A stretch of 64,000 bases of DNA from Bilabrum cf. latius. Its lineage: Eukaryota. Positions within the stretch are counted from its first letter, which is position 1. Each line of letters starts with the position of its first letter. The position numbers and the translations under genes were made by a program. The stretch is from NCBI GenBank assembly GCA_965178125.1, contig OZ237761.1:558001-622000 (forward strand), given 5' to 3'. Positions 11,201 to 64,000 of this stretch are shown here, piece by piece. A model generated the notes under the pieces. That model was not told where the DNA came from. It ran no database searches and saw nothing but the letters and a program-made list of their open reading frames with translations.

Positions 11201-12486
11201 GCTGGTCGAAGCAGCCGATCCACAGCAGCTTCACCAGGCTGGGCGAGGACCCGGAGCTCAGGCGAGTCGCCGCCAGGTGTTTCAGAGCGGTCCTCTCCTT
11301 CATGGGAGACCGGGGCACTGCGGCCGCTGGCGCCCAGGGGCGCAAGAGCAGGTGCGTGGAGCAGGCGCAGGAGGCGCTCGCTGTGGCGCACCAGCAGGTG
11401 CCTCTACGAGACGAGCTGTTGCTGCAGATCTGCAAGCAGCTGACGGACAACCCCAGCGAGGACTCGAGGGCCCGCGGCTGGGTCCTCTTGCACGCGGCGT
11501 TGAGCAGCTTCCCACCCTCTGCCACGTTCGAAAACCACCTCGAGTGCTTCCTGCGGAGGCATGGGCGACTGGCTTCCGTTCGTGCGATGCACTTGCGCAT
11601 GTTTAAGGGCGCGGCCAAGGCGCCTGCCTCGGCGGAGCTGCTACGGAAGGCGCTCGAGCAGGCGGGGCTGCCTCCGCTGGGCAGCGCGTCTGGCTCTGGC
11701 TCTTCTCCCGGTGCCTCGACTGGGCAGGGCGGGGCCGCCGCATCTGCCGGGGGAGGGGCCGGGGCCCTCGCAGCCAGTGCGCCGAGTAGCTCGGCTGCGG
11801 AACCGCCGGCGGCGCCGGGGGCGGGCGCCGCCAACCCGTTCCTCAGCGAGATTGCGAGCCCCATCCAGCAGCCCGGCCAGAGGGGCCGAAGCAAGCTGGC
11901 GCAGGCATCGACGGGGCCCGTCGCGCCGTCCACGTCCGCGGTCGGGCGACGATCCGGTGGTGCGGTGGAGGGCAAGTCACAGGACTCCACCGACGAGAGA
12001 CAGCGCGGCGCTGGCGCGCCTCAGCTGCAGCCCGCTCCTGGACCCGTCGTGGCGGGTGGCTTGGGTGCGGATGGCAAGGGGGAGGTGCCTCACTTGGAGC
12101 GGAGGGACTCTAGCGACTCGGTGAGCGAGCTTCAGGGCGACTCGGACGTGTCGTTCGCCCGCTTCAAGCCCGCGAGCGCCCGGGCGGCGGACCGGCATGA
12201 CTCGGTGGACATTCAGCTCGAGCAGGCGCTCTCCACCGTGGCCGACTCGCTGCGGCCGTCGTCCAAGCGGACCCCGCCCGCGGCTTCGAGGCAGGAGCAG
12301 GGGTAGGCTAAGGCATCGGACGCAGGGAGCGGAGCGTACCCGGTGAGCAGCATCCGCGACCTGCAAGCGCACGGCTAGGGTGGCCCCAGCGTTCGGTCCA
12401 GCTAGGGTGCGCAACGTTAGGCAGGTACGTCCGGCAAGCTGGATCGCTTAGCTGCGCTTCGAGCATCGCTTGGCAGCTTTGATTGA
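2292..12486 (+). CDS. Giant unconventional myosin (~3,337 aa): motor, IQ, long helical repeat tail, C-terminal MyTH4; intron 2641-2821; 8 in-frame TAG
   Basis: Motor motifs GESGAGKT, NNNSSRFGK, ILDIFGFE and HYIRCVKPN. IQ-like motif QRVVRGHLGR. MyTH4 motif LRDELLLQICKQLTDNP...RGW. GT..AG intron restores YTNIG/TILVSLNPFK. TAGs at 3367, 5863, 8668, 11026, 12304, 12376, 12403, 12418; true stop TGA 12484-12486. Confidence 0.93.
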
Positions 12487-34088: not shown

Positions 34089-38189
<4,101 letters not shown>

Positions 38190-38261
38190 TGTGTTGGTAC
38201 GTGTAGATAGCACAAACTTTCGGACTGGTGGTTGCGACAAGAGAATGAGAACGAATTATCA

Positions 38262-39017: not shown

Positions 39018-42000
39018 TCACGCGCGAGCTCCCTCACGCGCTCCTTCCTCTTCCGACTCGCTGTCCGCCCCGTTTGCCGAAGCAGCCTGCTGGCCAGCCC
39101 CCGCTGACCCAGCGGCGGCCGACCCTTCCCCGGCAGGAGCCGGCGCGGCCATGGCCTCCCTCAGCACGCCAACCACGCTGGGGAATGCGAACCACTCGGG
39201 GATGGCCTCCCCCGCCCTCATCCTCCTCCTGAACTCTGTCCCCGAGAGCTTCTGCACCTCTAGCCCCTCCGCCTTTGCCTCGCTCTCCGGCACGAAGCCC
39301 TTCTCCTCCGTGTACACCACGTTCTCGAACGTCTCGACGGTCACGCCTAGCTCGCTCGCGAACTGCTCCGCCATCACCTGCGCGTCATAGGGCCCGTGGA
39401 AGTCCTCGCCAGTCACCGTGCTCTTGGTGCCCGCCATGTCCCGCCCCACCACAAAGTGCGTCGCCCCGAAGTTCTTGCGGATGAGCAGGTGCTGGAGGGC
39501 CTCCCTGGGCCCCGCCATGCGCATTGAGTAGGGAAGGTATCCCCAGGTGATGCGCTCGTGCGGCCTCTCCCTCTGCAGTGCCTCGTAGGTTGCGATCCTT
39601 AGGGCAGGGTCGATGTCGCCCGGCTGGGTGGGCCCAGTGGTCAGGTGCACCATCATGCGTGCATCCTCGCCTTGCTTCTCGAGGGCGCGCAGCACCAGCT
39701 GGTAGTGCGCCTGATGCAAGGGGTTGCGGGCCTGGAAATACACGATGGGGGTGTCGCTTGGCCCGCTGGGGGTCATGCCGTGCATCGCCCTCACCTCCTT
39801 AGGAGTGTAGAAACGAGAGGCTGCCGCGGACCTGAACTCCTCCGCGGCCTCGGCGGACTCACCGAACCCAGCCGCCTTGGCCAGCCCGTCGGGCAGCGAG
39901 GGAACAAGGTCGGGCATCTCAAGACCGTGGAGCTTGCCGCCCACGTACACCGGGCCAGTGCCCTCGAAAAGATCAAAGACACCGGGATGGTCCATGCGAG
40001 TGGTGCCAAACAGGTGGTGCGCTTCCTTGACCTTGTCCGGCTTCCACACGTCTGCCACGTCCAGCACCGCCACGTGCTTGCCCTTGTAGGCGAGGACGAT
40101 CCGATCCCCGTCCTTGACTCGCTTTGCGGCCGCATCGGGCAGATCCAGGTTCATAGGCATGGGCCACAGCTGCTGCTCGGGCAGCCGCATGTGCTCCAGG
40201 ACACTCGTGTACTCTTCCTAGTTCATGAAACCGGTCAGCGGGGAGAACCCGCCGGACAAAAGCTGAGCAACAGACGTGGCCTGTCTCTCCGACAGCTCCC
40301 ACGTCACTCCAGAGAGGTCACCATCCTCTGTGCGGGCCGCCACATCTGCGAGCAGGTCTTGCTTCGCCTTGGCCGCCACTGCTCGTTGCTCGGGTGTGGC
40401 ATCGGGTGAGGCGGCCTCGGACCCGCCCACCATGAGATCTACCAGCTTGCCGCCGTGGGGCTCCCCGGGGATTGCCGCCCTGGTGTGGATCCCGCACTCG
40501 GTGTTTTCGTACCTCACGAAGCGGCCCGCACGCTCTGACTCGTGGGGGTACACCGGCACCGTTGTGTGGATGTCACCGAAGCTCTTGTACACGAAGACGT
40601 GCTCCGAGGGCGGGCTGCCCCTCAGTTCCTTCCGGCTCGCTCGCCAGTACGGCTTGCCAAGGTCGAATTTTTTCCAAGGGAGCGCCTCAGGCTCGTGCCT
40701 GGTCCTGGGGCACAGCCACTCGTCGTGCCTCCAAACGTAGTTGTGCGCCTTGTTGACGGGCACGTCGTGCTCATCCACGTATGCGAGCACATCCTCGAGA
40801 GACCACGACGCCATGGGATTGAAGATCTTGCGGTCTGCTTCCCATGCGTCCAGCTCCACCCGGGCGTTCCCCTGGTCTCGTCGCCTGCCGGTGATGAGGA
40901 TCTCCTTGCCCACGTCGGACAGCACGCGGTTGAACGGCTCCACCTTGGAGTGCTGGTCAAAATCCGCGTGCGAGATGGCTTCCCTGTGCCCGTGCACCCT
41001 CTCAAAATCCTCCATGGTCTCCAGTCCGATGGGCTTATACACTGTGGCCTCCCTCTCATACCTCTGCTGCATGCGAGCCATGAGCTCGTGCGTCTCGGGG
41101 AAGAGGTGGAGGGTGTCCACGGCTGCGGGGGAGAGCGGGAAAAGCAAAGAGAGTTGTGGAACGAATAGAAGCGTAGGTACGTGAATACTAGTTGGAGGCG
41201 GCCTGAACTGGAATGATCCTTCGTGCAAGACAAGTCTTCGCGTTTCGCCAATGGCTCGAGAGGCCGTGGCATCTGGCGTTCGGAAGCCACTGCAAGCACG
41301 ACGGCAGACTACCCATGGCATCATGCTGTATGTTAGCAGACAGTCATGCCTTGGATGGGTACAGCAGTCATTCGCTCGAACCCAAGGGGCCAAGGGGCAA
41401 GGCCCCGTCACACGGTTGCAAAAGGGCAACGAGTCTGCCCGCTTGCTACAAACTGATGAATTTCTCACCTACCCAGGCCATCCCGTCAAATACCTTCGGC
41501 GCATGTTTTTTAAACAAGTCCACAATCACATTATCCGTGTGAAGCCACGCTGCGAACAAAAGAGGGAAATTGCGAGGCGATACGGGTCCGTGGCAGTGAC
41601 AATGACATGCCTTCTGCCAATGCCCTTGACTAAAATGCGTCACGTCGAGCAAGGTATTATATAGTATTCGTAAATCTACATATATAATCATGACGAAGCG
41701 CCAGATCGAGCCTAGCATTGCGCGTTATGATGCGCGCCAACGCAGGGCACCAGCCAGACATGCCGACGTGTTCCAAGCCCGGCAAGTCGGGCAGACCGCA
41801 AAAAACACCGCAAAATTCGCATGCTCCCCTATCTCACCAGTCGCAAATGCTACACCCTTCCCATCTGCTGGCAGGTGGGCGCTGACCAACTCCTTGAACT
41901 CGGCTTCGAGGTCCTTGAGACGGGCCTAATCACCAGAGGCAGTGCTCGACGCAAATGACCTTGAGTAGGTTGCTGCACGCCGCACGACCCCGGCTTGACG

Positions 42001-50353: not shown

Positions 50354-51000
50354 ATGCAGCAAAGCCAGAATGCTTCCGCGCAGTCTCCGTTGGATCCTTC
50401 TTTTATTCTCAGAAAGGATGGCATGGTGCTCGTGCACGATGCTATCAGGCGTGACTTTCCCAGATTGATTGCAGCTATAGAGAAAGCCAACCCAGACCAA
50501 GACTGGTAGTTTCGCAACTTGGCCGAATGGTACGTGAAGTACTTCCAAGCTTCCGTTCATTCACACCATGGTTAGCATACTTTATCGCTTTGTGCACTTT
50601 TCATGATGATTGATGCAGGACCCGAGCAATTCACGCGCTGCAGGCTCCCCAACCCACCAACCTTCCCTCGAATCTCGTGCAGCTCGCCACGAAACATACC
50701 CCTCACGCCCCCAACGATCCACAACCAACCCCAAATACGATGTTCCTACTTTGTCTCACAGACGTCGAAGAGGAGGTGTTCTACCCTTGGCTCAGCAAGC
50801 GATGCACAGTCCCTGCGAAGATGACGACCGACCACGGCGACCTTCTCGAGAGGATGGCGAAGATAGAAGAGGGCCTCCTTGCCCTCGTGAAAAAGTCCTG
50901 CGGCGGGACTGCAGCCGACAGCACATCGGCTGCCGACATGCAGGCAGCCCGCCGGGCTGCCATCCCCGTGCTGGCGGGCCAGGTGCGTGACCTTGAGGCC
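50354..51000 (+). pseudogene. Hemerythrin-like (HHE) domain gene, 5' part, interrupted by the viral element; intron 50571-50761
   Basis: MVLVHDAIRRD...VHSHHD/VEEEVFYPW...MTTDH. The frame runs directly into the poly-C end of the AT-rich element. Confidence 0.75.
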
Positions 51001-52050
51001 CCCCCCCGCTACGGTAATAAATAAATTTATTCCCTTCGGTTAAGGATGATTAACATCATCAATAGTTCCAGTCCATCAGAGCTAAAGCTCTTCAGTCCGT
51101 TCCACTCCTTTTGGAGCTAGTCGCTCCAAAAGTCAAGGTGATCCTCTTCATACTGCTACTTCATATAACTGCTTTATCCTTCTAATTATATAAAATCAAT
51201 TATATATAAAACTCTATACGATGACCATATCCATACTTTGGGTATATATTATAGTAAGTTCTAATCAAAACGTGGATGTAGCCCTCTTGTGAAGGTGTTA
51301 TGGGACTCTAGCCATTTTCTAGCCAAAAGTTCCATCACTTTATGGGACTCCATTATTCAACCTTCTAAACTACCTTCATTATACCCCCTTATCCTCGCTT
51401 ATACCTTCACAAATGGAACCAAACGCGTGTATTATGATTGATGGGTAAAATTCTAAGGCTACCCCCTTGAAATGGCATTTAAGGGCTGAAGTAGTAATTT
51501 AAATATTATTTTGAGGGTTATAATAGCATCTAAATATATAAATATGTGTATAATTATAAATATATGGCGTAGAATGATAAAATGAGGTAGTAATTGATAC
51601 TTTCCAAAGTAGGTTCATACTTTCCAAAGTATCTTCATACTTTTTGAAGTATGGCACAAAATCGCAATAGTGGCTTTAATGGACAACTGAAATTGAATAT
51701 GAATATTTAGATTCATCATTTAATATTAAATGTGGCTCTTTAACCGGATGACATTGAATATGAATAATCAAGTTCACATTTGATTTGAACCTGAATATTG
51801 GAATTCACGATTTCTTAGGAAATATGAGGGTCTAACCAACAGGATTTAATATTAAATTTTAAGCCTTTATTAAGGGTGTATATGCTTAGGATATTACTTT
51901 ATATAATAATCAATATAATTTTCACCATCCACAGGCGGTTATTGTGGGTTAATCCATCAACTGAATAACGGTCGGGCACTCCTTTAAGTATTGGGCAAAA
52001 TAAAATGGATTAAAGGCAAAATAATATAAAATAATATAAGATAATATATA
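51001..52050. repeat. Candidate left terminal inverted repeat / non-coding terminus of the element
   Basis: Starts with a C-run and has no obvious gene. Hairpin cttttggagc-N5-gctccaaaag at 51108-51132. Three ~21-bp palindromic units (tactttccaaagta) at 51597-51654. The partner end is outside the window. Confidence 0.5.
51207..51342 (+). repeat. Conserved structured non-coding repeat, copy 1
   Basis: tatacgatg...atatcc...aaaacgtggatgtag...gttccatcacttta, shared with copies 2 and 3. Confidence 0.85.
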
Positions 52051-52055
52051 ATAAT

Positions 52056-52589
52056 ATGACGGTAGATTATAAAAACTCTAAAATATACAAGCTCTATTGT
52101 GTTGAAGACCCTTCTATTTGTTTCATTGGGGGCACAGCTTAGACGCTATTATCCACGGTTAAAGCTCTTCATAAGCAAAGCAAAAAATTAGATACGGTAG
52201 AACGAAAAGGATTACAGACAACTTATGAGATAGAAATCTTAGAAAAGTATCCCTGTGAGTGTATCAATGAACTAAATAAACGAATAGGTTATTGGTAGCA
52301 ATAGTATCCATCTTGTATTAAGAAAAAATAGCCTAAAGTGAGAGATAGACATCAATATTATTTAGACAACAAAGACCATATTAAAAAAATGACTAAGAAA
52401 TACAGAAAAGAAAACAAACAAAAAATGATTGAATACGACAGACAATACCGAAAGGATAACGAAGCCAAAATAAAAGCAAAAACCCAATGTCCTATTTGTG
52501 AGGCTGTTGTTAATAAATACAAGCTTAAGCAACATCAAGCAACGAAACAATGTCAAGCAATTAAAGCAAAATAGACGCCTAGCGACTAA
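52056..52589 (+). CDS. GIY-YIG-like endonuclease (NCLDV-type, degenerate) with C-terminal zinc finger, 177 aa
   Basis: DYKNSKIYKL...CFIGGTA(TAG)TL...IEILEKYPCECINELNKRIGYW, then CPIC...HQATKQC. Five TAG; TAA stop. Confidence 0.75.
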
Positions 52590-52805
52590 ATATAAATATA
52601 TACTGATCCTAACGCCGGATGGGGTTCGGTGTTGATGCCAGAGTGGGAGCGCGTGAACGTCTCGTTGGGTTCCGATGGCGGTTGCGACCGGGAAGGTGCG
52701 ACCAAGCCAACGGATTGCTTGCGATGACGCGCATACCCTCTCTGTGTTCAGGAGAGGGGCGGAGATTGGGTAATTTTTGCCCACCCTCCCAACCCCCTCC
52801 TCCTC

Positions 52806-52886
52806 GGCGGAGTAGTGCACGTGCTCTTCCCAGCCCCGGTCAGTCCGGTCAAGGGTAGCGCACAGGCACAGCTTTGTCAGGTCTTG
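52806..52886 (+). repeat. Direct repeat copy 1 (copy 2 at 55031-55111)
   Basis: ggcggagtagtgcacgtgctc...gtcaggtcttg is identical in both places. Confidence 0.95.
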
Positions 52887-52909
52887 ACCAACCTCCACCT
52901 GCCTCGAGC

Positions 52910-54796
52910 ATGCTCCCCGGTAGACCAGGCACTCGGGACTTCGGCGATCCGACAGTGCTCGCGGAGGCGCTCAGCAGTGCAGCATCACGGTCAACGGGCC
53001 CGGCAGGCCCTCAGCTTCTTCTTCCTCGTGTGTCTCCGGCTTACGACTCCCCCGGCGTGACTCCGGGCACCAGCCGCTAGCTTGACGCGGTCTGGGGCCG
53101 CCTTCCTGGGGATCTCCAACGGGCAGTGTTGCACTCCACGACGCTGCGGGGAACGGCCGACCCAGCGACAATTCTGCATCTACGCCTGTTTGCGCTGTGG
53201 CACAGCATTCCGACTCTGCGCCAGGAAGAGCTGCTGTCGCGCCTCTCCGCCCACGTGGAATTACAATGGTACTTCTCGCACCGACTGGCAGCCTCGATGC
53301 ACTCATCCCCGCCACCGGTCGACGCTACACCCGCTCATCAGCCACCCCGTGAACCTCCTGTGTCATCTTCTGCCTCACCGCAGCCTGCGTCTTCAATTGA
53401 CCCAGTTTCACCGGGCGCAGGCACGGCAGTGGACTCCGCGGCCGTTCGCTCGCAACCAGTGGAGATTTTGTAGCGTGAGGCCTCTGCACCTTCAATCGCT
53501 GCAATTCGAATGCAGAATTGGTTTTCTGATGATTTCTTGGCAACGTTGACCTCGATCTTTCGCCAATCCGCGTTCATGCCGCGGTTTTGCTAGGCTGACG
53601 CGCTTCATTTGGACGCTAGCGGCCGCGATTTCGCTGCAGAACTGGCCCGTGCTCTGTTTGGTCAGGCCGTGACGAGAGCCAAGATTGAATCGGCTATTTT
53701 CTCGTTCACGAGCCGGCTTCATGCAGCTCTGCCGATGAGCAATGCTAGTTTTGGGAAGTTCGATGCGTCCAACTCGGAGTCGTCTGCTGCAGGCGGACGA
53801 GAAAAGTAGGTGCCATCTAGCGAGTTACTATGCACTATTTACTCGGCTATTTCCTTTGCTTTAGGCTGTGTGCTCGTGCGCGCTGCTTGCGTGCATTCGG
53901 CGGCGTCCTTGCCGTCCTGGTTGCCGCAGGGCAGCAGCTCGTGGTCGTGTCCAGCATCACTAGTGCCCGATTGGAAAACCCTGGGGCAGGTTCGCAATGA
54001 TTTTCTTCGTTTGGTTAGTGCTTCCGGGGCATCATCTGCATCGGCGTCCCGACTAGAGGTGGTGTTTGCCGCTGTGTGTGTGATACCACGCGGAAGTTCA
54101 GCCTTTGAGATGCTCTCCTCCCATGCTTGGCGCCATACAGGCGAACGCTGTGACGTTGAGGTTCGTGACCTTGTTGGGAATGAGATTCCTTCGTGCTCTT
54201 CTGGCGACTGCATGCGTCTCCTACAATTGCTGCATCCGTGGGCCACTGAGGCATGCAGATCAGGCGAACCTGGCCTCGTGCGCGGACTGCTACAGGGAGT
54301 CCAGGCTGACATGCAGGCGCCGTCCCGTCGAGCAGCACTGTCCCGTCACTTCGACCCCCGCGGGGGCAGTGGAGGCCGGGGCAGTGGAGGCGGGGGCAGT
54401 GGAGGCTCCAGGCGCAGTGGGGGCGACAGCGACCAGCCCAGTACCGATCGTGGCGGAGGTCGACACCGTCGAGGCCGTGGACGTGGCGGTGCAGGCCAGC
54501 AAGGTGGCCAGCACCAGCGTGCGGACCGGCAGGACGGGGGTTCCACCAGGAAGTCCAAGGAGCCTTCACCTGACCCTCCCCCACGAGGTACGTCACGTCA
54601 GAGCCAGCCCCAACTGCAGGCGCAGACGAAGACTACGCCCGGTAGCTGGCGCTCAGCTGCCCCACGTCAGGGCCAGTCTTCGTGGCGAACACGAAGCCGA
54701 TCGTCAAGGCGCAGGTCGTACGGGCGCTCCGCAGCTTCTGCTCACGAGAAGTTGCAGGAGCGGTGCACGGACATTCCATCCGCATCGCGGCAGTGA
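52910..54796 (+). CDS. Retroelement ORF1 (gag-like by position), ~628 aa
   Basis: Four track ORFs in one frame joined through TAGs at 53078, 53471, ~53591 and 53807. Gly/Arg-rich C-terminal region. Gag assignment rests on position only. Confidence 0.6.
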
Positions 54797-54990
54797 TGTG
54801 TTTGGACCGTGCTGGGGTCGCCTTCGAGGTCATTAGGCGATTCGGCAGATGGAAGTCGGCATCTGCATGCGAGGTGTACTTGCGGGGCGTCAGGGAAGGC
54901 TTGCCTCCTCTGGAGCTCGGCGGCAGGAGCCTCGATTTGAACAGGCCAGTGTGGGTGCTGGCCAGCGCGCTGCGGCTGAACTTGGAGTGA
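54660..54990 (+). pseudogene. Tyrosine recombinase C-terminal remnant
   Basis: GHSIRIAA...IRRFGRWKSASACEVYLR carries the HxxR, GRWxS and catalytic Tyr motifs of DIRS/Ngaro YRs. The N-terminal catalytic Arg region is missing. Confidence 0.8.
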
Positions 54991-55196
54991 GCCACACAGC
55001 CGCAGCGTACAAGACATGGCGGTAAGATTTGGCGGAGTAGTGCACGTGCTCTTCCCAGCCCCGGTCAGTCCGGTCAAGGGTAGCGCACAGGCACAGCTTT
55101 GTCAGGTCTTGCCATGTCTGATTGTGGTGTATCCATATATGTATATATTCTCATCGTTTTTTTAAAACTCAAAAATTATAACTTAGTATTATAGAT

Positions 55197-55967
55197 ATGA
55201 ACTTTAATAATTATGTCATTGAAAATCCCGTCCTAATGAAGCAGATTTATAAGGCTACAGACCATATTACGGATAGCACGCAGAAAATTTTAGAGACCAT
55301 TACTACGTATGTAGATTTAGGTGGTAAGTTTTCCAAACCTAAATTAATTAATAAAAATATAGTTAGTGATATTAAAGAGAAAAAAGCCGTCAAAAAACCC
55401 AAGAAAGAAGAGAAACAGAAGATACAACACGATAATAACGACCAAGTTGAAATTAAGCAAACATACATTCTAGATAAATTTAATGACTATAAACCACCAA
55501 ATAATAAAATTTATAATGATGTAGATGATTTACAACCGCCAGAATTAATTAGATAGACCGCAATAGATGAAAAATTAACCGGTATGGAGCCTGACAGTGA
55601 AAGCGAAATAAACAGCGTTAGTACCGAACAAGACTAGATAGAAGCAGAAACTGATGACGAAATGATACCTGAGGAAGAGAAAAAAATAATAGGTGATTTA
55701 ATTAAATTAGAGAATCAGGATTATAGGTATAAAGTGTCCGTAAATGGAAATGATGTATTTTTTGGTGAAATTAATTTACCCGATGTAGAGGCTCTTAAGA
55801 AATAGTTTAGCCCTCGTAAATTACAAATTATGATATCAAAAATAAAAAGGAATTATAATATTAATAATAGCGATGATATCAACAGCCCTGAGTTTTGGAA
55901 TAGCCGGGTATATTTGACCCTTGATGTGAAGGCCGAACACGAAAAACTACAAGATATCTATAATTAA
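55197..55967 (+). CDS. Viral hypothetical protein (256 aa); C-terminus resembles the C-terminal domain of 60085..60792
   Basis: Open through TAGs to TAA. YKVSV...VFFG...KRNY...SPEFWNSRV parallels YMIKV...VHFG...KKNY...SPAFWSRFV. Confidence 0.7.
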
Positions 55968-56030
55968 AAGCCCCTACAACTTAATAAACGGGCTAGAATT
56001 TAATTAAATATTTTAATATAACCGCTATAT

Positions 56031-56170
56031 TAAAATCTATACGATGGCTATATCCACAAATTGCGTATAATTATATAGTATTTCTAGCAAAACGTGGATG
56101 TAGGGCCTCTTGTGAAGGTGGTATGGGACCTTTAGATAATTTTTAAAAATAGTTCCATCACTTTAGAAGG
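56031..56170 (+). repeat. Conserved structured non-coding repeat, copy 2
   Basis: Stem ctatatccac (56048-56057) pairs with gtggatgtag (56094-56103); second stem 56114-56129 pairs with 56152-56164. Confidence 0.85.
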
Positions 56171-56283
56171 TGTTAAAATACACCATTCATATCACAATCT
56201 ATTTTTTAGGGCTAAATGGCAAAAATCACCTTTTACCTTCATTAATTATTATAGCCCCTTTAAGCCCTCTATAATTAAATATG

Positions 56284-56302
56284 GCGTTTAAAATAGTTTA
56301 AA
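56284..56302 (+). promoter_or_regulatory. Viral promoter motif GYGTTTAAAATRRYTTAAA, 47 nt upstream of ATG
   Basis: The same motif lies 46-48 nt before four viral start codons. Confidence 0.7.
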
Positions 56303-56330
56303 AATATATTTCTAATAATATATATAGAAA

Positions 56331-59108
56331 ATGAATAATAAAAACCTCGTTAGTTTCCCCATCAAGCACAATCAAAAAATACCCGATGTTAAAAGCTGGC
56401 GTTATCTCACCAAACCCGAGCCTAAACGATTTAATAATCAGAATATGGCTATTATCACCGGAGAAATTAATAATATAACCGTGTTTGATATTGATTCATA
56501 TAAATGGAGCGATAAGAAGGAGCATTTATTCATCAAGAAATTTTCAGATGACTTTGTGAAGCGGTTCAACACATTCACGGTTAAAACAGCGGGTGGAGGG
56601 TATCATTTATATTTTAAATATGATTAGAATATATTAACTACCACCAATAGAGATATTGACGTTGATATTCGTAATGATGGGGCTTATGTAGTGGCACCAC
56701 CAAGTGGCATAAATGGGTCAAAATACGAAGTTATTAATAATGTAGAAATAAAAAAATGTCCTAAGGAGCTTTATAAATTTTATGAAAAGTATATTATTAA
56801 ATCCTCTAAGAAATCCAACGTAAAAGGGGCGAGTAAAAGGATATCAAAAATTGATAATCAAGATGTGAATAACTGTATGATGAAATTCATTCTAAATGGT
56901 AAAGACTGGTCAATTATATTAAATAGATTAGATAAGAAATATTTAAATAATTATAGTGATTGGTATAAAGCAACCCTAGCGAGTAAATATTTAGGATTTA
57001 AGAAGGAATGGTAGGAGTGGAGCAAGAAGGGCAATAAATACGACTACCACAAAAATAACAAGGTGTGGAACTCTATCCATTATTTTGATAAGTTAAAAAC
57101 CTTTAATTTAGTTAATTCAATAATTTAGAATGATAAAAGTTTAAAGGCATTTGTGAAGGATAAGTATATTTCAAAGTGTTATTATCGTCCTTATGACGAG
57201 AATATTAACGGGTATACAGAAATTAATAAACCTAAGTTAGATGATATAGAGAAGCCCGAACGCTTTTTTAAATATGAATATAACTATGTGGTAAAAAGTG
57301 ATACAGGAACAGGTAAAACAACAGCATTTAAGAAGTATATTAAACAGGTTCAAACGCCGTTCTTATCCATTGTGTCCCGTGTATGTTTAGGCACAGAGCA
57401 ATACGAGAGCTTTTTAAATGAAGATATTAAATGTGAGTTCTACCAGAATAAAGATTTTGATTTTGGATAGTCTCTTATTATTACGCCGGAAAGTATCCCC
57501 CAAATTGTGAATTATGATTTTTCTAAATACATCGTATTCTTGGATGAATTCAATAGCATTATAGAGCATATATTAAGTTCTACCACGATGAATAATAATA
57601 GGGTTCTTGTATTATTTATTATTTTAAAAATGATAAGGACGTGTAAATAGTTTATTGCTGTAGATGCTGACATATCCCAGATAGCGATGAAATTTTTAAA
57701 ATGTGCTGGAGTAGAATTTAGCTTCATTAAGAATAAATATAAGCATTTTAAGGACGTAAAAGTATATTTTGAAAAAGACCAATAGAAATTTTACGATAAA
57801 TTAAAAAGTGAAGATAAATTTATACTGGCGTGTGATAGCAAGAAGAACGCAGATACATTTTATAAAATGTTATGTAAAGATGGTATAGAGGACGTTAAAT
57901 TAATTACTAGTGATTTATTACCTGATGAAGATGTGAGCTTAGATAAATATGATAAAATTATATTTAGTCCTAAAGTCATTTACGGATTAGATAGTGTAAT
58001 GGAACGCCCAGTGTATGGATTATATAAAGGAAAAACGATTCTACCGCCGTAGATGATGTAGCAACTGGCAAGATGTAGAAATCCCGAATATATGAATATA
58101 TATTTTGAAGATGTAAAATCCATTTATCCAAGATATGAGAATTTAAAGGAGGTATAGACGACCTTAAATATGGAAATTAACGCATAGACAGATTTATATA
58201 CTAAATTAGAAAAATACGAAAAAAGGATAATGTAGGAGAATGATATTGACATTGATATTTTTGAGGGAGAAGATGATGAAGAGATAGCCCATAAAGCAAT
58301 GATAGAGGCATCATACAAGGTTTATTTACCACTCAAGAAATTATATAATTTCAAATGTGATACATACGAAACAAATAAATATATTCATTTATAGCTTATT
58401 CTTAAAAACAGGGGTGCCGATGTATAGGTGGATAAGGAATTACCACAACGAATGAATAAATAGCAGATGAAAGAGGCGACAATGGAGATACTACAAGAAA
58501 AGATTGATTCAATTGATGTAGAGAACGACCATATAAAAAGAAGAATTGAAATTTTAGGGCTACCAGAGACAGCCATAACGGAGGATATTAAAATGTTATT
58601 AATTGATAATTACAAATTAATGAATTATTTTAATTATGCTAATTTCAAGAGAAAAGATAAATATAAACTAATGACAGAATTAAAGGATAGAAAGGATTTT
58701 AAGGATGAGAAAGCAAAAAGTACAAAGAATAAAATAATCATATTATAGGAGATGTTATAGACGCTTAAATTGAATAAATTTGATTTAAGTTATACACGTA
58801 AAAATGAGAAATCCATTAAATATATAGAAATGGGTAAAAGATATGTAGAAGTAAGCGGGGCGAGATTATAGAAGCCAATAGAAACCGATAGTGAATTACA
58901 CGGGGCAATAGTAAAATTATATAAGTAGTTATTTGGAAATATTAAAACCTCTTGGAGTATGGGAAATAAAAAGGATAAAAAGGATAGAGAATTAAGAATT
59001 AAATTCACCAAGGAGAAAGAATTATTTGATGAAGTTTATAAATATTAGTATCCCGAAATGAAGGACATATACAAGGAATCCAACGAACGATTAGATCAGA
59101 ATATTTAA
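56331..59108 (+). CDS. Bifunctional prim-pol + PriCT-2-like + SF2 (UL9/origin-binding-like) helicase, 925 aa
   Basis: ITVFDID, TAGGGYHLYF, DIRNDGAYVVAPPS; YSDW...EWSK; KSDTGTGKT, FLDEFNS, M(TAG)QLARCR. About 19 in-frame TAG, no internal TAA/TGA; TAA stop. Confidence 0.9.
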
Positions 59109-59120
59109 TACCTTTTTTAT

Positions 59121-59139
59121 GTGTTTAAAATAACTTAAA
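59121..59139 (+). promoter_or_regulatory. Viral promoter motif, 46 nt upstream of ATG 59167
   Basis: gtgtttaaaataacttaaa. Confidence 0.7.
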
Positions 59140-59166
59140 CATTATATATTTATATAATATATAGTG

Positions 59167-59469
59167 ATGAGCGATATTTAGAGTTCAAGCAATACAGAGG
59201 AGCAACCAAAAATTAATTATATGTAGGAATATTACAAAACAAACAAAGACAAATGGAATAAAAAATATTTAGCTAGAGGAAATGAAAAAGTTAAATGCGA
59301 TGTGTGTGATTGTTATTATAGAAGGAAGGACAGAACGAGACACGAACGAACGAAGAAACACCAAAAAAATCTCAAAGAACCAAAAAAGGATATACTAGAG
59401 GAATATATCAAAAAACTTAATCAAACCCTGCTTAATAGCGGGATTAAACCACCGGAGATATCAATTTAA
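59167..59469 (+). CDS. C2H2 zinc-finger protein, 100 aa (absent from the ORF track)
   Basis: CDVCDCYYRRKDRTRHERTKKH. Two TAG; TAA stop; preceded by the promoter motif. Confidence 0.78.
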
Positions 59470-59509
59470 ATTTATCTATTTATTTATTTTTTATAAATAA
59501 AAAGATTTT

Positions 59510-60031
59510 TCAACCTTTAATAACCATCCAATTAGCGGACCAATCATTAGAGGAATTACCACCCGTTAAATGAATCGTAAATCCATCGGTTCCTGCTACT
59601 ACGTGGGAAAATTCAACCGGCTCACTGGCGGGGGTGATTGTAGTAATAAAAACCAAATCACTAGAAGTCATACCCGGAACACTAGCAAATTCAGTAGCAC
59701 CTCCACCACTCCAATTTACCCTTCCTTTATGCGCTACGGTGTTATTTGCTACTACTTCACCTTTTACGGTTAAATCACATTCGTGACCGTCTTCATCAAA
59801 ACTCATAACTAAACCAGCAGATGCGGTATTGGCACCGAATCGTAAAGCTTCACCCGAAGTGATGTAAGAGATACCCTTACTGTCAAGATGTAATCCTGCG
59901 TTGCTAACAACTACATCACTACTATTCACAACAGCATTTACATATAGACCACTACTATCTAATCTACCAGTTGCGACATTCTTACATTGAATAGATATAT
60001 CATTAGGTTGCGATAATCTTGCTAAGCTCAT
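59510..60031 (-). CDS. Viral hypothetical protein, Gly/Ser/Val-rich, possibly a virion fibre or minor structural protein (173 aa)
   Basis: Intact ORF with beta-strand-like composition. Function is inferred only. Confidence 0.65.
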   Translation of the reverse strand: MSLARLSQPNDISIQCKNVATGRLDSSGLYVNAVVNSSDVVVSNAGLHLDSKGISYITSGEALRFGANTASAGLVMSFDEDGHECDLTVKGEVVANNTVAHKGRVNWSGGGATEFASVPGMTSSDLVFITTITPASEPVEFSHVVAGTDGFTIHLTGGNSSNDWSANWMVIKG

Positions 60032-60084
60032 TTTTTGTATATATAAATAAGAGAAAAACTAAAACTTATATCAAACCTATAATA

Positions 60085-60792
60085 TTAAACTTTCATTAAT
60101 TTTTTAGCTCTATCTACGGCGTCCATAAAGCTATCTTTTAATGTTGGTTCATTCCATAATACAAACCTAGACCAAAAAGCGGGGGATTTATAGTCTTTAA
60201 AGTCTTCATTTATTGAATGTCTTTTAATATAATTTTTCTTTTTACGGTTTGCTTCCTTCTCTCCATCTTTATTATAATATTGTATAAAGTCCATATAAGG
60301 GGTACCATCATTCTTAATTCCACCAAAATGAACAGTAAACAGAATATTATTACCTTGAACTACTTTAATCATATATTTTTTATTAGATTTAGTTGATTTA
60401 TATAAATTAAAAACTGGTTTAGGTCTAAATGATTTCACGTGTCCGTTATTAAATTTTTCCTTCATTGCTTCCTCTATTTCTTCCGTGTCTAATTCTCCAA
60501 AGGTTAAAGGGGTCTCTTTATTTATTCTTTTAGTGGGTCTATATATATCTCCTTTTTCCTAATATCCCTTTTCTCCCTTCTAATTCTTCCAATCCTCTAA
60601 TTTCCATCGTCTTAAATTTTTCTATGCTTCATTTAATTTAATTTTATCATATGTCCCCCCTAGTTTTTTATAACGAGCAAAATATGCTAATGAACGATAA
60701 GCTGAAGGCTTTTTATACGTTCTATTTACTTTCTCAACTGCCTGACGCCATAATTTAGGATTATTAATATAACTAGGTATATTATCATTCAT
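60085..60792 (-). CDS. Two-domain conserved viral protein (DUF5872-like + Tlr6F/DUF5754-like), 235 aa
   Basis: KPSAYRS...YKKLGG, RWKLEDWKN(TAG)KGEKGY, DIYRPTKRI; then KKYMI...VHFG...YMDF...YIKRH...SPAFWSRFVLW. TAA stop. Family names are from recall and unverified. Confidence 0.7.
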
Positions 60793-60800
60793 CTATATAA

Positions 60801-60959
60801 TTAATAAAATGATAATTTTTTAATTGCGTGAGCCGTTTTCTTTCTGTATTCTTCATAGAGTCTTTTATTATTTGGATTCTTCATCAATTTATTTTTTACC
60901 TTCTTTAATGCCTTCTTAATAGCATACTAAACAAAGATATTACTAATAATATTAATCAT
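60801..60959 (-). CDS. Small basic viral protein (52 aa)
   Basis: ATG..TAA frame with one TAG that fills the gap between neighbouring genes. Confidence 0.45.
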
Positions 60960-60986
60960 ATATTATATAATTAATAAATATTTAAT

Positions 60987-62510
60987 TCAAAGTATAAAAC
61001 CGCCTTTTTTTCCTTTCCTTGATATAATTTCTTCTTTTTCATTTACGACCATTAAATCATTCTATCCGTGGATAATTAATTTCTATCCTTCTTTACCCTC
61101 TTCTTCAATCTTAAAATATCCTATTGCTTTTGCTGTGCGTAGGCGTATTTTTTTATTAAAAGTGATACTGTCGGTGTGTATTCTCACGATATATTTAGCG
61201 TTGTTCTAATTCACTTTCTTCATCAACTTAGACCGTCCATAACTCAACAAAAATGGCTTTATTTTTCCCCAGCTATATTTAAATGGCACCTTGTGTTTTA
61301 GATGATAAATAAATTCTCCGTCATCATCCATCTCCACACGGTCTATATTGAATTTGTCTATATTAATTTTGTCATTTTTAGAGGTTATAACCTTTTTCTT
61401 AGAACTACATAATTTACCCCATAGAGAATTTAATATTTCTTTGGCTAGACGTAATACATTCTTTAATTTAAAACATAATGCTGTCCTCCTGATATCATTA
61501 AATATACTCACATACTTAAAAAAAAGGCTATCACCTTTAATATATTTATCATAGGTCATAAAATTAAATTCGTCGCTTGACATCTCTATCTCACAACCAT
61601 ATTTAACAAACATATTAATATCAGTAAAGACATAATAAGTAAATTCATTTTCAAATACCTTCATCATTTGAAAGATATTCGGGTCGCATTTCCCTTGGCT
61701 CACCTTACATTTATAAATCCCTATTTCATTATTTTTAATTATCTAATTATTTTCAACTCGTTTATATATGGGGTTTCCGTATGGAAATAATGAACTTGAT
61801 GACATAATGGCGGGGTAATGACTATTTATATCGTAGGTGATAAACTCCTCATATTGTCCCTTCTTGTGATATTGAATCCCGCCACGCGTTGAACCTTCAA
61901 TAAATACCGCTTCCTCTGGGGTTATATCTGGTGGGCTATCTATCATCATATTAAACATTGTAAAGAAATGAAGGGCTGTTTGTCTGATTCCATATTTCAT
62001 TACATCTAATGATGGGTTCTCATCGTGTAATTCATCACTTGCTATACTCAACCTTAAACTCCATTCTTTGATATCTTCATCCTCTGGGCATTCGTGAATG
62101 GTATAATGAAGATAATATTTCTTTGAATGATAATCGGTCAGGCTCTCAACTCTATATTTATCTTTTTCAATTATTTCGGCTTTATCGGTTAATTTAACAA
62201 CCATAGATTTATGGCACCGCACAAATAAAGGTTTCATCCTCTAGACGGCTTTAAATGAACCATCTTTATATTCTAAACAAACCCTTTTAAAACTCTCTTT
62301 TTTCCTACTTAGATAATAGACCTTTATATCGTCTTTCTCTCTAATCTCTATATCCATTTTTAAACCTGAAACAAGTTTATAAAGGTTCTTTGTAGTTATG
62401 GGCTTACCGTTAAATACCTTTTCTAGATACTTTACGGATTGAATGGGGTTATCATACTTTTTACCAAAGCATATATTTAATTGATTTAACACATTTTCGT
62501 AATTTATCAT
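60987..62510 (-). CDS. polB: Protein-primed family B DNA polymerase, compact (507 aa)
   Basis: RGG, motif A YDINSHYP, motif B KEILNSLWG, motif C IHTDS. Motif C lies beyond the TAG at 61206. Five TAG; TGA stop. Confidence 0.88.
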
Positions 62511-62539
62511 TTCCTATAGTATATTATATTTAATATATT

Positions 62540-62558
62540 TTTAAGCCATTTTAAACAC
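62540..62558 (-). promoter_or_regulatory. Viral promoter motif, 48 nt upstream of the polB ATG
   Basis: Reverse complement reads gtgtttaaaatggcttaaa. Confidence 0.7.
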
Positions 62559-62588
62559 ATATTATAAAGTTTAAATTATAAAATGTAA

Positions 62589-62930
62589 TTATTGTTTCGG
62601 AGCAGTGAGGATTAATATAAATCTCTTCACTTGCTCATCACTTAAGAAGGTATAACGAGAAGAAGGACTGAATAGCATTACATCATCCTTTAGTTTAAAT
62701 ACTGACGAAGTTCGCCAGCCTATGGGGTAGAGAGAACTAACATACGCATCATAATTTTTTAAATGGGGCTTTTGTTTTAATAATCTCTAGATATATTTTT
62801 TTAATAAAGTCTTCATTTCTAAATCATTATATCCATCATCTGGACGAGGAGGAAACACAAAATTATATACGGGCTTATTGTTTTTAATAAGTTGAGTTCT
62901 AACAATTTGAATATCACGTAATTTAACCAT
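62589..62930 (-). CDS. Viral hypothetical protein (113 aa)
   Basis: ATG..TAA with one internal TAG; partial promoter motif upstream. Confidence 0.6.
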
Positions 62931-62975
62931 TTTTATATATATACTATAGATATTTTATTTTTAAGCCAAATAGAC

Positions 62976-62994
62976 GCGTTTAAAATGACTTAAA
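62976..62994 (+). promoter_or_regulatory. Viral promoter motif, 47 nt upstream of ATG 63023
   Basis: gcgtttaaaatgacttaaa. Confidence 0.7.
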
Positions 62995-63022
62995 GATTTT
63001 ATTTTATTATAATATATATAGA

Positions 63023-63568
63023 ATGTCAAAATTTGAGAGTTATGAACCGAGCGAATTAATGGAACTTTTAGAAGAAGGAGCCGTAAAGAAAGCCAAGAAA
63101 TATATTAATCAATTCTTCTTTAAAACTTTTAAAGGGATATTTTTTAATAATACCGTAGAAGATAAATTTGAACTAGTGGATGAAGACGAATTAAATGGTT
63201 TGTATCTAACCCCTGATATGAAGACCGACAGCGCCAAAAATCCATTTGTTCCATACATTTATATGTTTTCTAGTGAGCCCCCGATTTATTATACAGGAAA
63301 TTTTGAGAGTAAAGACCCCATAATGACAATTAAAAAGAAGGACAAACCCATCAAATATATTAATTTGTCATACGGTCAATTTATACCCGAGGAAGTAGAG
63401 GAACCAGAAGAAGAAGAAGAACCAATAAGACCCAAGAAAAAGACTAAGAAGAGGAATAAGAAGAAACAAAAACGTGATAATAATAGAAATGTTGATAAAC
63501 CAGATGATGAAGATGATGATGAAGAAACCTTTAGAGACCAACTAAACGAGGCATTAAAAGATTTCTAA
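63023..63568 (+). CDS. Viral hypothetical protein with acidic/basic tail (181 aa)
   Basis: Intact ORF, TAA stop, promoter motif upstream. Confidence 0.75.
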   Translation: MSKFESYEPSELMELLEEGAVKKAKKYINQFFFKTFKGIFFNNTVEDKFELVDEDELNGLYLTPDMKTDSAKNPFVPYIYMFSSEPPIYYTGNFESKDPIMTIKKKDKPIKYINLSYGQFIPEEVEEPEEEEEPIRPKKKTKKRNKKKQKRDNNRNVDKPDDEDDDEETFRDQLNEALKDF

Positions 63569-63680
63569 ATAATTTAATATTTCTACTAATATTAAATATG
63601 ATATCTTTATTAAAAGTTGAACACCTTGACCATCTAATAAAAGGGCTAGAATATTAAAATATATATGGTTATCTCTATAT

Positions 63681-63820
63681 TAAAATCCATACGATGGCTA
63701 TATCCACAAATTGCGTATTAGTATATGTATTATTTAGCAAAACGTGGATGGATTAGCTTTATGAAGATGATTTGATTGATAACGTATTTCTAGCCCAAAA
63801 GTTCCATCACTTTAGAAGGT
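63681..63820 (+). repeat. Conserved structured non-coding repeat, copy 3
   Basis: tacgatggctatatccacaaattgcgtat...agcaaaacgtggatg...gttccatcactttagaagg. Confidence 0.85.
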
Positions 63821-63979
63821 TGTAATATAGCCCCTTCTAACTCCCATCATCAATATGTTAAATATTAATTTTATCATTAATATCTAATTATTATTTACCA
63901 ATATGACATTTATAACAAATTGAATATTTCATATCTTTAATTCTAGACACTCCGCATTTTTTACACGCCTTTTTTCCAT

Positions 63980-64000
63980 TGATGCCAGAGTGTACGCGCA
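63980..64000 (+). mobile_element. Possible left end of a second YR-retroelement insertion
   Basis: TGATGCCAGAGTG is identical to the first 13 nt of the 52633 element, at an AT-to-GC transition. Confidence 0.5.

Follow-up and report, generated by a model that had tools for sequence, protein, structure and literature searches.

An island of GC-rich DNA inserted in an AT-rich virus-like element is, with high confidence, a deleted copy of a tyrosine recombinase (YR) element, immobile by itself and lying in a viral spacer, where TAG is a sense codon in all three layers: host, virus and island. From its protein relatives the island belongs, again with high confidence, to a small unannotated eukaryotic mobile-element family with a long ORF1 and a separate YR of about 360 aa. 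The family is taken as mobile because ORF1 relatives are found on two other contigs and 14 YR representatives are known. The whole account, including a Ngaro/DIRS-like parent with reverse transcriptase (RT) and RNase H in the deleted middle, stands at about an even chance.

The island and the virus-like element around it

In the 64-kb window (the whole stretch of DNA that was analysed), the AT-rich virus-like element adjoins GC-rich host DNA at about position 51015. Only this left host-virus junction is in the window; the element continues past 64000. Pfam matches in the element are Prim-Pol (E = 7e-16), PriCT_2 (E = 3e-6) and DNA_pol_B_2 (E = 2.7e-14). Its gene content is virus-like: a primase-helicase and a protein-primed PolB are encoded, the set found in mavirus-like elements of low GC. 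Pfam recognised no capsid, penton, packaging ATPase, protease, integrase or TIRs in the 13 kb visible, most of the element lying beyond 64000. The island and its immediate flanks show the following features.

52056–52589, plus strand: uninterrupted upstream viral ORF of 177 aa, ending in TAA and containing 5 TAGs, open with TAG as sense
52603–52607, no strand: CTGAT pentamer at the left edge, recurring at the right edge (55118–55122)
52608–55122, plus strand: GC-rich island, an internally deleted YR-element copy (GC contrast; ORF1 and YR relatives elsewhere)
52608–52805, plus strand: GC-rich 5′ segment preceding repeat copy 1, no homologue; P0004 homology only from 52868
52806–52886, plus strand: first 81-nt copy of the direct repeat, shortly before the ORF1 ATG, 100% identical to 55031–55111
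55031–55111, plus strand: second 81-nt copy of the direct repeat, lying 40 nt past the YR stop, with 11 nt left to the island end
55197–55967, plus strand: uninterrupted downstream viral ORF of 256 aa, ending in TAA and containing 3 TAGs, open with TAG as sense

The GC content is 0.317 in the left viral flank (51016–52607) and 0.298 in the right (55123–64000), and both island edges are abrupt GC changes, each inside one 100-nt bin. The insertion site is a spacer of about 90 nt separating two intact viral genes. The TAA stop of the upstream ORF lies 18 nt before the island and the downstream ORF starts 74 nt past it. A preliminary description of this DNA had placed a GC-rich island between two undisrupted viral genes, and this is borne out by the GC contrast (0.617 versus 0.30–0.32) and by both flanking ORFs being open. 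Its coordinates, 52633–55122, hold at the right end, but the left end belongs about 25 nt further outward, at the GC step at about 52608. It also nested the virus in a host gene, which can be no more than a possibility with the left junction alone in the window.

The perfect 81-bp direct repeats in that description are confirmed, the copies at 52806–52886 and 55031–55111 being identical at 81 of 81 positions (blastn E = 7e-37). Repeat copy 1 is preceded by about 198 nt of unique sequence inside the 5′ edge of the island. This segment (52608–52805) has no match to the remaining island or window and is possibly a promoter, a leader or carried-along sequence. A second (B) repeat pair of at least 10 nt was not found at the island termini, and a search of the island for terminal inverted repeats and for an internal complementary region of the DIRS type gave only 8–10-mers at chance level, as did the search for the B pair. 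A 19-nt imperfect AT flank repeat (52590 versus 55136, 15/19) was rejected as a target duplication, as it is low-complexity AT and inconsistent with the perfect 81-nt repeats. Rfam gave no match at E ≤ 1 in positions 50900–56400, and a tRNA scan of the whole window gave no genes.

The sense reading of TAG applies to the host as well as to the virus and the island. All 9 long host ORFs contain in-frame TAGs, as do 8 of 10 viral ORFs, ORF1 (four) and the YR remnant (one). TAA and TGA still terminate viral ORFs, and TGA terminates all 9 host ORFs examined. The earlier claim was that TAG encodes Gln in all three layers; the sense reading stands, but Gln is seen at only two of the three informative island positions, where TAG aligns to Gln in P0001 (YR) and in P0004 (ORF1), the third being His. 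Three host TAGs were aligned to PDB proteins and fall at variable positions, E/R in myosin, and E and R in ATP sulfurylase and a reductase FAD domain; these alignments were set aside as a guide to the host amino acid.

ORF1, the recombinase remnant and the internal deletion

The coding features of the island are all on the plus strand.

52910–54610, plus strand: ORF1, authentic part, 567 codons with four in-frame TAGs, homology to P0004 and P0005
53078–53080, plus strand: first ORF1 TAG, aligned to His in P0004
53471–53473, plus strand: second ORF1 TAG, aligned to Gln in P0004
53591–53593, plus strand: third ORF1 TAG, the exact end of database protein P0004
53807–53809, plus strand: fourth ORF1 TAG
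54194–54256, plus strand: Cys-X4-Cys-X7-His-X6-Cys spacing in ORF1, read off the translation; P0005 is identical starting with the second Cys
54356–54541, plus strand: Gly/Arg-rich (RGG-like) low-complexity ORF1 tail
54604–54610, plus strand: deletion junction, possible 7-nt microhomology; ORF1–P0005 identity to 54610, YR homology from 54604
54611–54796, plus strand: out-of-frame ORF1 run-on over the YR remnant, ending at TGA 54794–54796
54604–54990, plus strand: YR C-terminal remnant, frame +1, TGA stop at 54988, 70% identical to P0001 residues 252–362 (E = 2e-42)

With TAG read as sense, one island frame is without TAA or TGA for 727 codons, a length that 2000 shuffles of the island sequence never reached (maximum 598, median 252). 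The ATG at 52910 is the ORF1 start backed by P0004 homology, and the frame beginning there contains exactly four TAG codons (53078, 53471, 53591 and 53807), the number of read-through TAGs originally reported. The longest ATG-started ORF begins at 52619 and has a fifth TAG, within repeat copy 1. ORF1 and P0004 share 67% identity over 226 aligned columns. The end of P0004 at the third TAG is expected if the source of P0004 was called under the standard code. ORF1 residues 432–567 and P0005 are identical at 130 of 131 aligned residues, with one 5-residue indel in addition. These two relatives are both short fragments and come from two other contigs.

ORF1 is predicted to be helical, followed by the Gly/Arg-rich tail. 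The tail carries a 15-nt tandem array (54363–54406, 2.9 copies), and P0005 is without one 5-residue unit. The Cys/His spacing differs from the canonical retroviral knuckle and may be taken as a lead only. Pfam showed no families for ORF1, whole or in pieces, and an AF2 model from a 3-row alignment was unusable (mean pLDDT 34.6). ORF1 residues at about 480–540 were tried as a YR box I and rejected, showing no similarity to P0001.

The YR remnant is the counterpart of residues 252–362 in a 362-aa homologue; thus only the last 31% is encoded, as the preliminary description had it in reporting a C-terminal third only. His is encoded at 54772, Arg at 54781, Trp at 54850 and Tyr at 54877, with one in-frame TAG at 54643. 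The motifs HGHSIRIAAV, GRWKS and EVY match the superfamily pattern H-x-x-R ... (H/W) ... Y, and the motif positions are nearly invariant among 149 relatives. The Pfam Phage_integrase (PF00589) match is under the cut-off (E = 0.004, profile positions 92–167 of 172). A weak alignment to Cre (PDB 1crx and others; E = 0.3) covers Cre positions 286–328 and pairs the four residues with H289, R292, W315 and Y324. The remnant is without the whole upstream part, which includes the equivalents of Cre R173 and K201.

The first catalytic Arg (box I), the Lys and the N-terminal core-binding domain are missing from the island YR; P0001 has both the box I Arg (GGLRLGE) and the Lys (LGLHKA). Searches of the window by tblastn with P0001, P0002 and P0003, which are full-length or longer YRs, matched only 54604–54990, and their N-terminal approximately 250 residues gave no match better than E = 0.3. 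The first in-frame ATG of the remnant, at 54796, is past the H-x-x-R motif. Since the remnant lacks the first catalytic Arg and the Lys, has no start before H-x-x-R and is out of frame with ORF1, this copy is unable to make its own recombinase. A search of 1.84 billion proteins yielded 14 YR representatives at E ≤ 1e-10; diverged YR relatives show 60–70% identity. Look-alikes of P0001 in the Atlas are unnamed YR-like clusters only.

The island is taken as an internal-deletion derivative because ORF1 follows P0005 up to 54610 and then diverges, with YR homology from 54604. A single deletion brought ORF1 codon 567 (nt 54610) together with approximately residue 252 of the YR (nt 54604), the possible 7-nt microhomology being derived from protein alignments only. 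P0005 continues for 139 residues past ORF1 codon 567, and the window has no counterpart of them. Lost in the deletion were YR residues 1–251 and any sequence that separated the YR from ORF1. The deletion may have arisen at the short microhomology through template switching or end joining.

Class and mobility of the element

A Ngaro/DIRS-like YR retroelement is the most likely identity of the family, and the deleted middle would then have held RT/RNase H. The gene order that is preserved places ORF1, which has no family, first and the YR remnant last, with the middle deleted; the Ngaro order is described as gag-RT/RH-YR (PMC8547959). Several points lean towards a retroelement: the order ORF1 ... 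YR at the 3′ end, with repeats upstream of ORF1 and after YR; the long perfect repeat pair (81/81), unlike Cryptons, which are described as without long direct repeats (PMC3212892); the nucleic-acid-binding-like Gly/Arg-rich tail of ORF1 and the run-on of P0005 by at least 139 residues, which a YR-only transposon would not need; and the precedent of GC-rich Ngaros in AT-rich Cafeteria virophage elements.

RT and RNase H were looked for in all sequences reached. Pfam gave no families in the island frames except for the weak integrase match, and none in P0004 and P0005, hence no RT or RNase H there. RVT or RNase H is found in 0 of the best 149 YR representatives and in 0 of 25 that were scanned with the longest ones included. 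A search with the 89-residue tail of P0005 for longer relatives returned only P0005, and the tail has no PDB relative. A PDB sequence search with P0005 gave low-complexity Gly-linker matches only and was discarded, and an Atlas look-alike search gave no usable match. The original proposal of a derivative that kept ORF1 and lost RT/RNase H is thus sustained for the kept ORF1 and the lost middle, but not for the RT/RNase H content (0 of 149 relatives). The Ngaro retroelement label itself stays a proposal, as no RT-bearing relative was reached and the repeats form one family (81 nt, two copies) with no B pair, not the Ngaro/DIRS plan A1-[ORFs]-B1A2B2.

The element would enter DNA as a circle via a YR crossover. 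If the island moved after the deletion, RT and YR would have been borrowed in trans from full-length relatives, with its own ORF1 expressed. Mobilisation in trans and passage in virions, which the preliminary description suggested, are conjecture. The more extended reading, an ORF1-only Ngaro-like rider of a TAG = Gln lineage that borrows RT and YR, inserts in viral spacers without doing harm and so could exit in virus particles, is unlikely when all its parts are taken together.

A dead remnant, meaning that a full-length copy entered the virus, lost its middle there, never moved in deleted form and founded no non-autonomous family, is a serious contender that falls a little short of an even chance. 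By blastn no part of the island, its junction included, has a further copy anywhere in the 64-kb window, and the near-identical P0005 copy is without the deletion. Two scans of genome_contigs, a collection that does not hold this organism's genome, were also empty: a YR profile search gave 191 pattern matches with 0 confirmed, and a 28-nt repeat piece gave 0 matches. However, missing sister copies say little when the host genome is outside the searchable collections, and ORF1 is still open for 567 codons with host-like TAG usage. The dead-remnant reading fits either the retroelement or the DNA class and competes only with mobilisation in trans.

A live but somewhat unlikely rival derives the island by deletion from a Crypton-like DNA transposon, which would make it a non-autonomous DNA element. 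The parent would have had ORF1 and YR without RT, excised as a circle and reinserted by YR at a short core. RT or RNase H is found in none of the relatives reached, and the close YR relatives are all stand-alone proteins of 250–420 aa; a stand-alone YR does not discriminate, since the Ngaro YR is also a separate ORF. As in Cryptons, YR is the sole recognisable enzyme, and the CTGAT at both edges, which could be the crossover core, resembles the 4–6-nt terminal direct repeats of Cryptons (Kojima and Jurka, 2011, PMC3212892). The pentamer is not significant: shuffling the two edge stretches of 21 nt gave a common 5-mer in 1980 of 20000 trials (approximately 10%). Internally deleted non-autonomous copies are included among the Cryptons described (PMC3212892), but the perfect 81-nt direct repeat pair and the large upstream ORF1 set the island apart from the class as described there. 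An ORF1 of >700 aa with an RGG-like tail is no described Crypton feature. The island bears no resemblance to GCR1_C, C48 peptidase or DUF3504; DUF3504, which is Crypton-A-derived, had no match in P0001–P0003 (E ≤ 1) or in any of the 149 relatives (E ≤ 0.001), and this rules out that Crypton group alone.

That the island is no transposon but captured host DNA or an assembly chimera is highly improbable: its GC (0.617) equals that of the host (0.614 for 1–51015), but it encodes ORF1 and a YR remnant with a catalytic motif, has diverged (67%, 60–70%) and near-identical ORF1/YR relatives on other contigs, carries its own terminal-region repeats, finds no match in the window's 51 kb of host sequence, and has its edges exactly within a viral spacer.

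Comparison with known nested elements

A transposon nested in an endogenous virus is a known arrangement, and the island adds a further case. Protist cases described are few: Ngaro in Cafeteria, Ty3/Gypsy in Hydrurus, and MULE/LINE in Halocafeteria. In the literature searched, no description was found of the code of this host or of such nesting in a TAG-recoded host, although one may exist in print. With the TAG reassignment common to cell, integrated virus and nested transposon, each of them is limited to hosts that use this code. The value of the case is limited in that the retroelement nature and mobility are inference only.

The closest system is Cafeteria burkhardae, for which GC-rich Ngaros are reported in AT-rich endogenous mavirus-like elements (Hackl et al., 2021, PMC8547959). 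In that report the sites are intergenic in 9 of 20 analysable cases, and copies with ORF1 favor viral DNA. The island shares with these Ngaros a GC-rich insert in an approximately 30% GC virus with primase/helicase and pPolB, in a GC-rich host. It also shares the order ORF1 ... YR, a YR with H-x-x-R and Tyr, an intergenic site, and an ORF1-bearing copy in viral DNA. It differs from the copies described in its size (2.5 kb versus approximately 6 kb), in having no RT/RNase H and only the last 31% of YR, in its single 81-nt pair in place of the A and B repeats, and in the use of TAG as sense in island, virus and host. The Cafeteria deletion variants described are without ORF1 (PMC8547959), unlike the island, which keeps ORF1 and is without the enzymes. 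The idea that ORF1 directs such elements into viral DNA comes from Cafeteria, and a copy with ORF1 but no enzyme offers a natural way to test it. If the rider reading is true, the retained ORF1 would be the protein that correlates in Cafeteria with virophage-DNA targeting, and the common TAG reading would mark a closed, long-lived three-level association within the recoded lineage.

Viral elements of Streblomastix use the reassigned stop codons of their host, and a Hydrurus polinton-like virus holds a Ty3/Gypsy element (Bellas et al., 2023, PMC10120064). Halocafeteria virophages and PLVs are described as holding MULE and LINE elements (preprint 10.64898/2026.07.28.741278). Unlike the Streblomastix case, TAG alone is reassigned here, and unlike the Hydrurus and Halocafeteria cases, the nested element is YR-based.

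Compositional layers and genetic code

Three compositional layers make up the window (host DNA, an AT-rich region and a GC-rich island), and the GC changes at their borders are sharp at 100-nt resolution.

Main features of the window
1 to ~51015: host DNA, GC 0.614
51016 to window end: AT-rich virus-like region, GC 0.317 left and 0.298 right of the island
52608–55122: GC-rich island, GC 0.617
52806–52886 and 55031–55111: perfect 81-nt direct repeat (blastn E = 7e-37)
54604–54990, in another frame than ORF1: tyrosine recombinase (YR) C-terminal end, HGHSIRIAAV ... GRWKS ... EVY
AT-rich region: 925 aa viral protein, Prim-Pol (Pfam E = 7e-16) / PriCT_2 (3e-6) / helicase, 19 in-frame TAGs
AT-rich region: viral protein-primed PolB, DNA_pol_B_2 (Pfam E = 2.7e-14)
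AT-rich region: viral DUF5872 protein (Pfam E = 3e-21)

The preliminary description set the left edge of the island at 52633, about 25 nt too far in; the GC step is at about 52608. The island shows no similarity to the rest of the window (blastn within the window).

All nine long host open reading frames contain in-frame TAGs (68 in total) and end in TGA, none in TAA. Among them are a myosin, GH47, ATP-sulfurylase/PAPS reductase and a reductase flavoprotein; seven of the nine have a Pfam family, at E-values between 3e-204 and 2e-7. In-frame TAGs are also found in 8 of the 10 viral open reading frames (38 in total), where seven stops are TAA and three TGA. Thus TAG is a sense codon and translation stops at TAA and TGA. 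The TAG share of Gln-type codons is 68/621 in host and 38/99 in viral open reading frames. An island TAG is found opposite Gln in P0001, a database YR protein (ARQLALSC), and opposite Gln in P0004, a database relative of ORF1; one island TAG is opposite His in the P0004 alignment. Three host TAGs compared with solved structures fall at variable positions, opposite E/R (myosin), E and R. The earlier assignment of TAG to Gln stands as to sense in host, viral and island open reading frames; Gln itself, with two Gln and one His, is the best choice, though its support here is slight.

Host genes appear as very long single open reading frames with no obvious introns, e.g. the myosin with 3303 codons; examples in positions 1–51015 are 2575–12486, 34089–38255 and 39018–41525.

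The surrounding virus-like element

Once TAG is taken as sense, ten clean open reading frames emerge in the AT-rich region. Low-GC mavirus-like elements of Cafeteria are described as carrying a primase/helicase and pPolB replication module (PMC8547959), and the element here has the same genes and a similar GC of ~30%. In the visible 13 kb, Pfam recognised no gene for a capsid, ATPase, protease or integrase, and the element extends past the window; the region is therefore termed an endogenous virus-like element of the mavirus/polinton-like kind, its virophage status being unproven.

Only the left host-virus border lies within the window. A weakly hemerythrin-like host open reading frame (50740–51024, Pfam E = 0.11) terminates exactly at this junction, its stop codon falling within the first AT-rich bases. 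The hemerythrin-like sequence is split over two frames (50354–50824 and 50740–51024), and either an intron or a frameshift could account for this. Over ~1 kb at the virus's left end (51016–52055) there is no open reading frame of 60 aa or more. This stretch carries a 20-nt tandem repeat at 51597–51643 (2.3 copies) and, at 51688–51807, a family of 28-nt repeats; it could be terminal-repeat or regulatory sequence.

Viral open reading frames 52056–52589 and 59167–59469 have in common a zinc-finger-like motif near the C-terminus, Cys-x2-Cys ... His, with a YY..NKD...KKY stretch ahead of it; by sequence they look like paralogues, and their Pfam zinc-finger matches are only weak. The N-terminus of the former (KIYKLYC...FIGGT) resembles a GIY-YIG nuclease motif. 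The 173 aa open reading frame 59510–60031 (−) lacks in-frame TAGs, stops at TGA, is rich in Gly/Ser/Thr/Val and matches no Pfam family; it could encode a structural or fibre-like protein.

ORF1, the recombinase remnant and their junction

One island frame runs for 727 codons with neither TAA nor TGA, a length that no shuffle among 2000 attains (maximum 598). Homology to P0004 starts at 52868 and takes in ORF1 from its Met (52910) on; identity is 152 of 226 aligned columns. Counted from this Met there are four in-frame TAGs, as stated in the preliminary description, and the P0004 terminus coincides exactly with the third; such an end is expected if genes in a related genome that reads TAG were called under the standard code. 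ORF1 has no Pfam family. The AF2 model (pLDDT 34.6) is not usable; its secondary structure shows helices and then a disordered Gly/Arg-rich tail, in which a 15-nt tandem array lies.

The YR remnant is 70% identical to residues 252–362 of the 362-aa P0001 (E = 2e-42) and 60–61% identical to the C-terminal ends of two other database YR proteins, P0002 and P0003. P0001 residues 1–251, which include the box I Arg and Lys, have no match anywhere in the window; the homology is limited to the C-terminal third, as first described. Pfam Phage_integrase matches below cut-off (E = 0.004, profile positions 92–167 of 172). The PDB gives 17 matches at E ≤ 10, every one a Cre or Cre-derived (Tre) recombinase, and the best (E = 0.32) aligns H289, R292, W315 and Y324. 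The first in-frame ATG, 54796, is downstream of H-x-x-R. The remnant cannot be active as a recombinase.

P0005, a 303 aa ORF1 relative from another contig (18,878 bp), matches ORF1 residues 432–567 with 130 of 131 aligned residues identical and one 5-residue indel, the size of a single tandem-array unit. Beyond this match P0005 runs on for 139 residues that are missing from the window. ORF1 identity to P0005 stops at nt 54610 and YR homology starts at nt 54604; thus a single deletion joined ORF1 to the YR tail, in agreement with the proposed deletion derivative retaining ORF1. The 7-nt overlap, derived from proteins only, suggests microhomology. Past the junction ORF1 crosses the YR remnant out of frame to a TGA at 54794. 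Because a near-identical undeleted relative (P0005) and a 67%-identical one (P0004) exist, sequence comparison shows the family to be multi-copy and diverging, i.e. a mobile element.

Compared with the window, the P0005 copy has a 1-nt indel near 54204, which places its first 27 residues in another frame, and a difference of one unit in the 15-nt array at 54363–54406; its ORF1 may itself be frameshifted. P0012, a 208 aa YR-family relative, combines a YR C-terminal end (residues 109–192, profile match) with an unrelated N-terminal half and may reflect another, independent truncation event in a related YR gene at some other locus.

The island copy is unable to supply recombinase or the product of the deleted middle. 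It can still express, as predicted from sequence, a 567-codon ORF1 with a 62-codon out-of-frame tail. Missing enzymes would come from full-length relatives, and YR crossover would insert the element as a circle without a true duplication of the target. ORF1 may steer insertion towards viral DNA. The same has been proposed for Cafeteria Ngaros, of which ORF1-bearing variants are reported in viral elements and ORF1-less ones in host DNA (PMC8547959). Since all ten viral open reading frames in view are open and the insert, as the preliminary description claimed, leaves both neighbours intact, carriage in virions is possible.

Affinities of the island and known nested elements

That the family is a retroelement is close to an even call, perhaps slightly favoured. 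ORF1 comes first and YR last, with the repeats just outside the coding block; ORF1 is large, with an RGG-like tail, and in the parent it extends at least 139 residues further. The terminal sequence of P0005 (HLKVHDDPLAFTPRKY) may resemble the stretch ahead of RT domains in LTR-type elements. The 81-nt direct repeats of the preliminary description are present, long and perfectly identical, and Cryptons are said to lack such repeats (PMC3212892); a close precedent is reported in Cafeteria (PMC8547959). Against a Ngaro, there is a single repeat pair with ~198 nt of unique island sequence before copy 1, and a second (B) pair sought in the island was not found, which differs from the published A1-[ORFs]-B1A2B2 layout (PMC8547959). 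A 9-nt inverted repeat, 55013–55021 / 55111–55119 (AGACATGGC / GCCATGTCT; 8-nt core from the repeat search, ninth base pair read by eye), flanks copy 2, and nothing like it is found around copy 1.

The YR family is small: of 1.84 billion representatives, 332 match at E ≤ 1e-3 and 14 at E ≤ 1e-10. Its close members are without exception stand-alone proteins of 250–420 aa. The Pfam scan covered 149 of the best 150 matches, omitting P0013, a repeat protein of 1909 aa whose match consists of 16 short stretches. Phage_integrase is found in 111 of the 149, and RVT, RNase H and DUF3504 in none. P0004 and P0005 have no Pfam family, the P0005 tail as query matches P0005 only, and two scans of the genome contig collection gave no confirmed match. 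With RVT and RNase H absent from these relatives and a repeat layout that is not Ngaro, the earlier claim of a retroelement that lost RT/RNase H is unconfirmed.

A Crypton-like DNA element is possible though rather unlikely: CTGAT at both island edges resembles the 4–6-nt terminal repeats reported for Cryptons (PMC3212892), but 1980 of 20000 shuffles produce such a match. Any other reading is very improbable.

Transposons nested in endogenous protist viruses are already known: Ngaro in Cafeteria (PMC8547959), Ty3/Gypsy within a polinton-like virus in Hydrurus (PMC10120064), and MULE and LINE elements in Halocafeteria, where Ngaros are reported absent (preprint 10.64898/2026.07.28.741278). Viral elements of Streblomastix are described as using the host's reassigned stops (PMC10120064). 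Relative to these cases, the island adds a host recoded at TAG only and an ORF1-only derivative.
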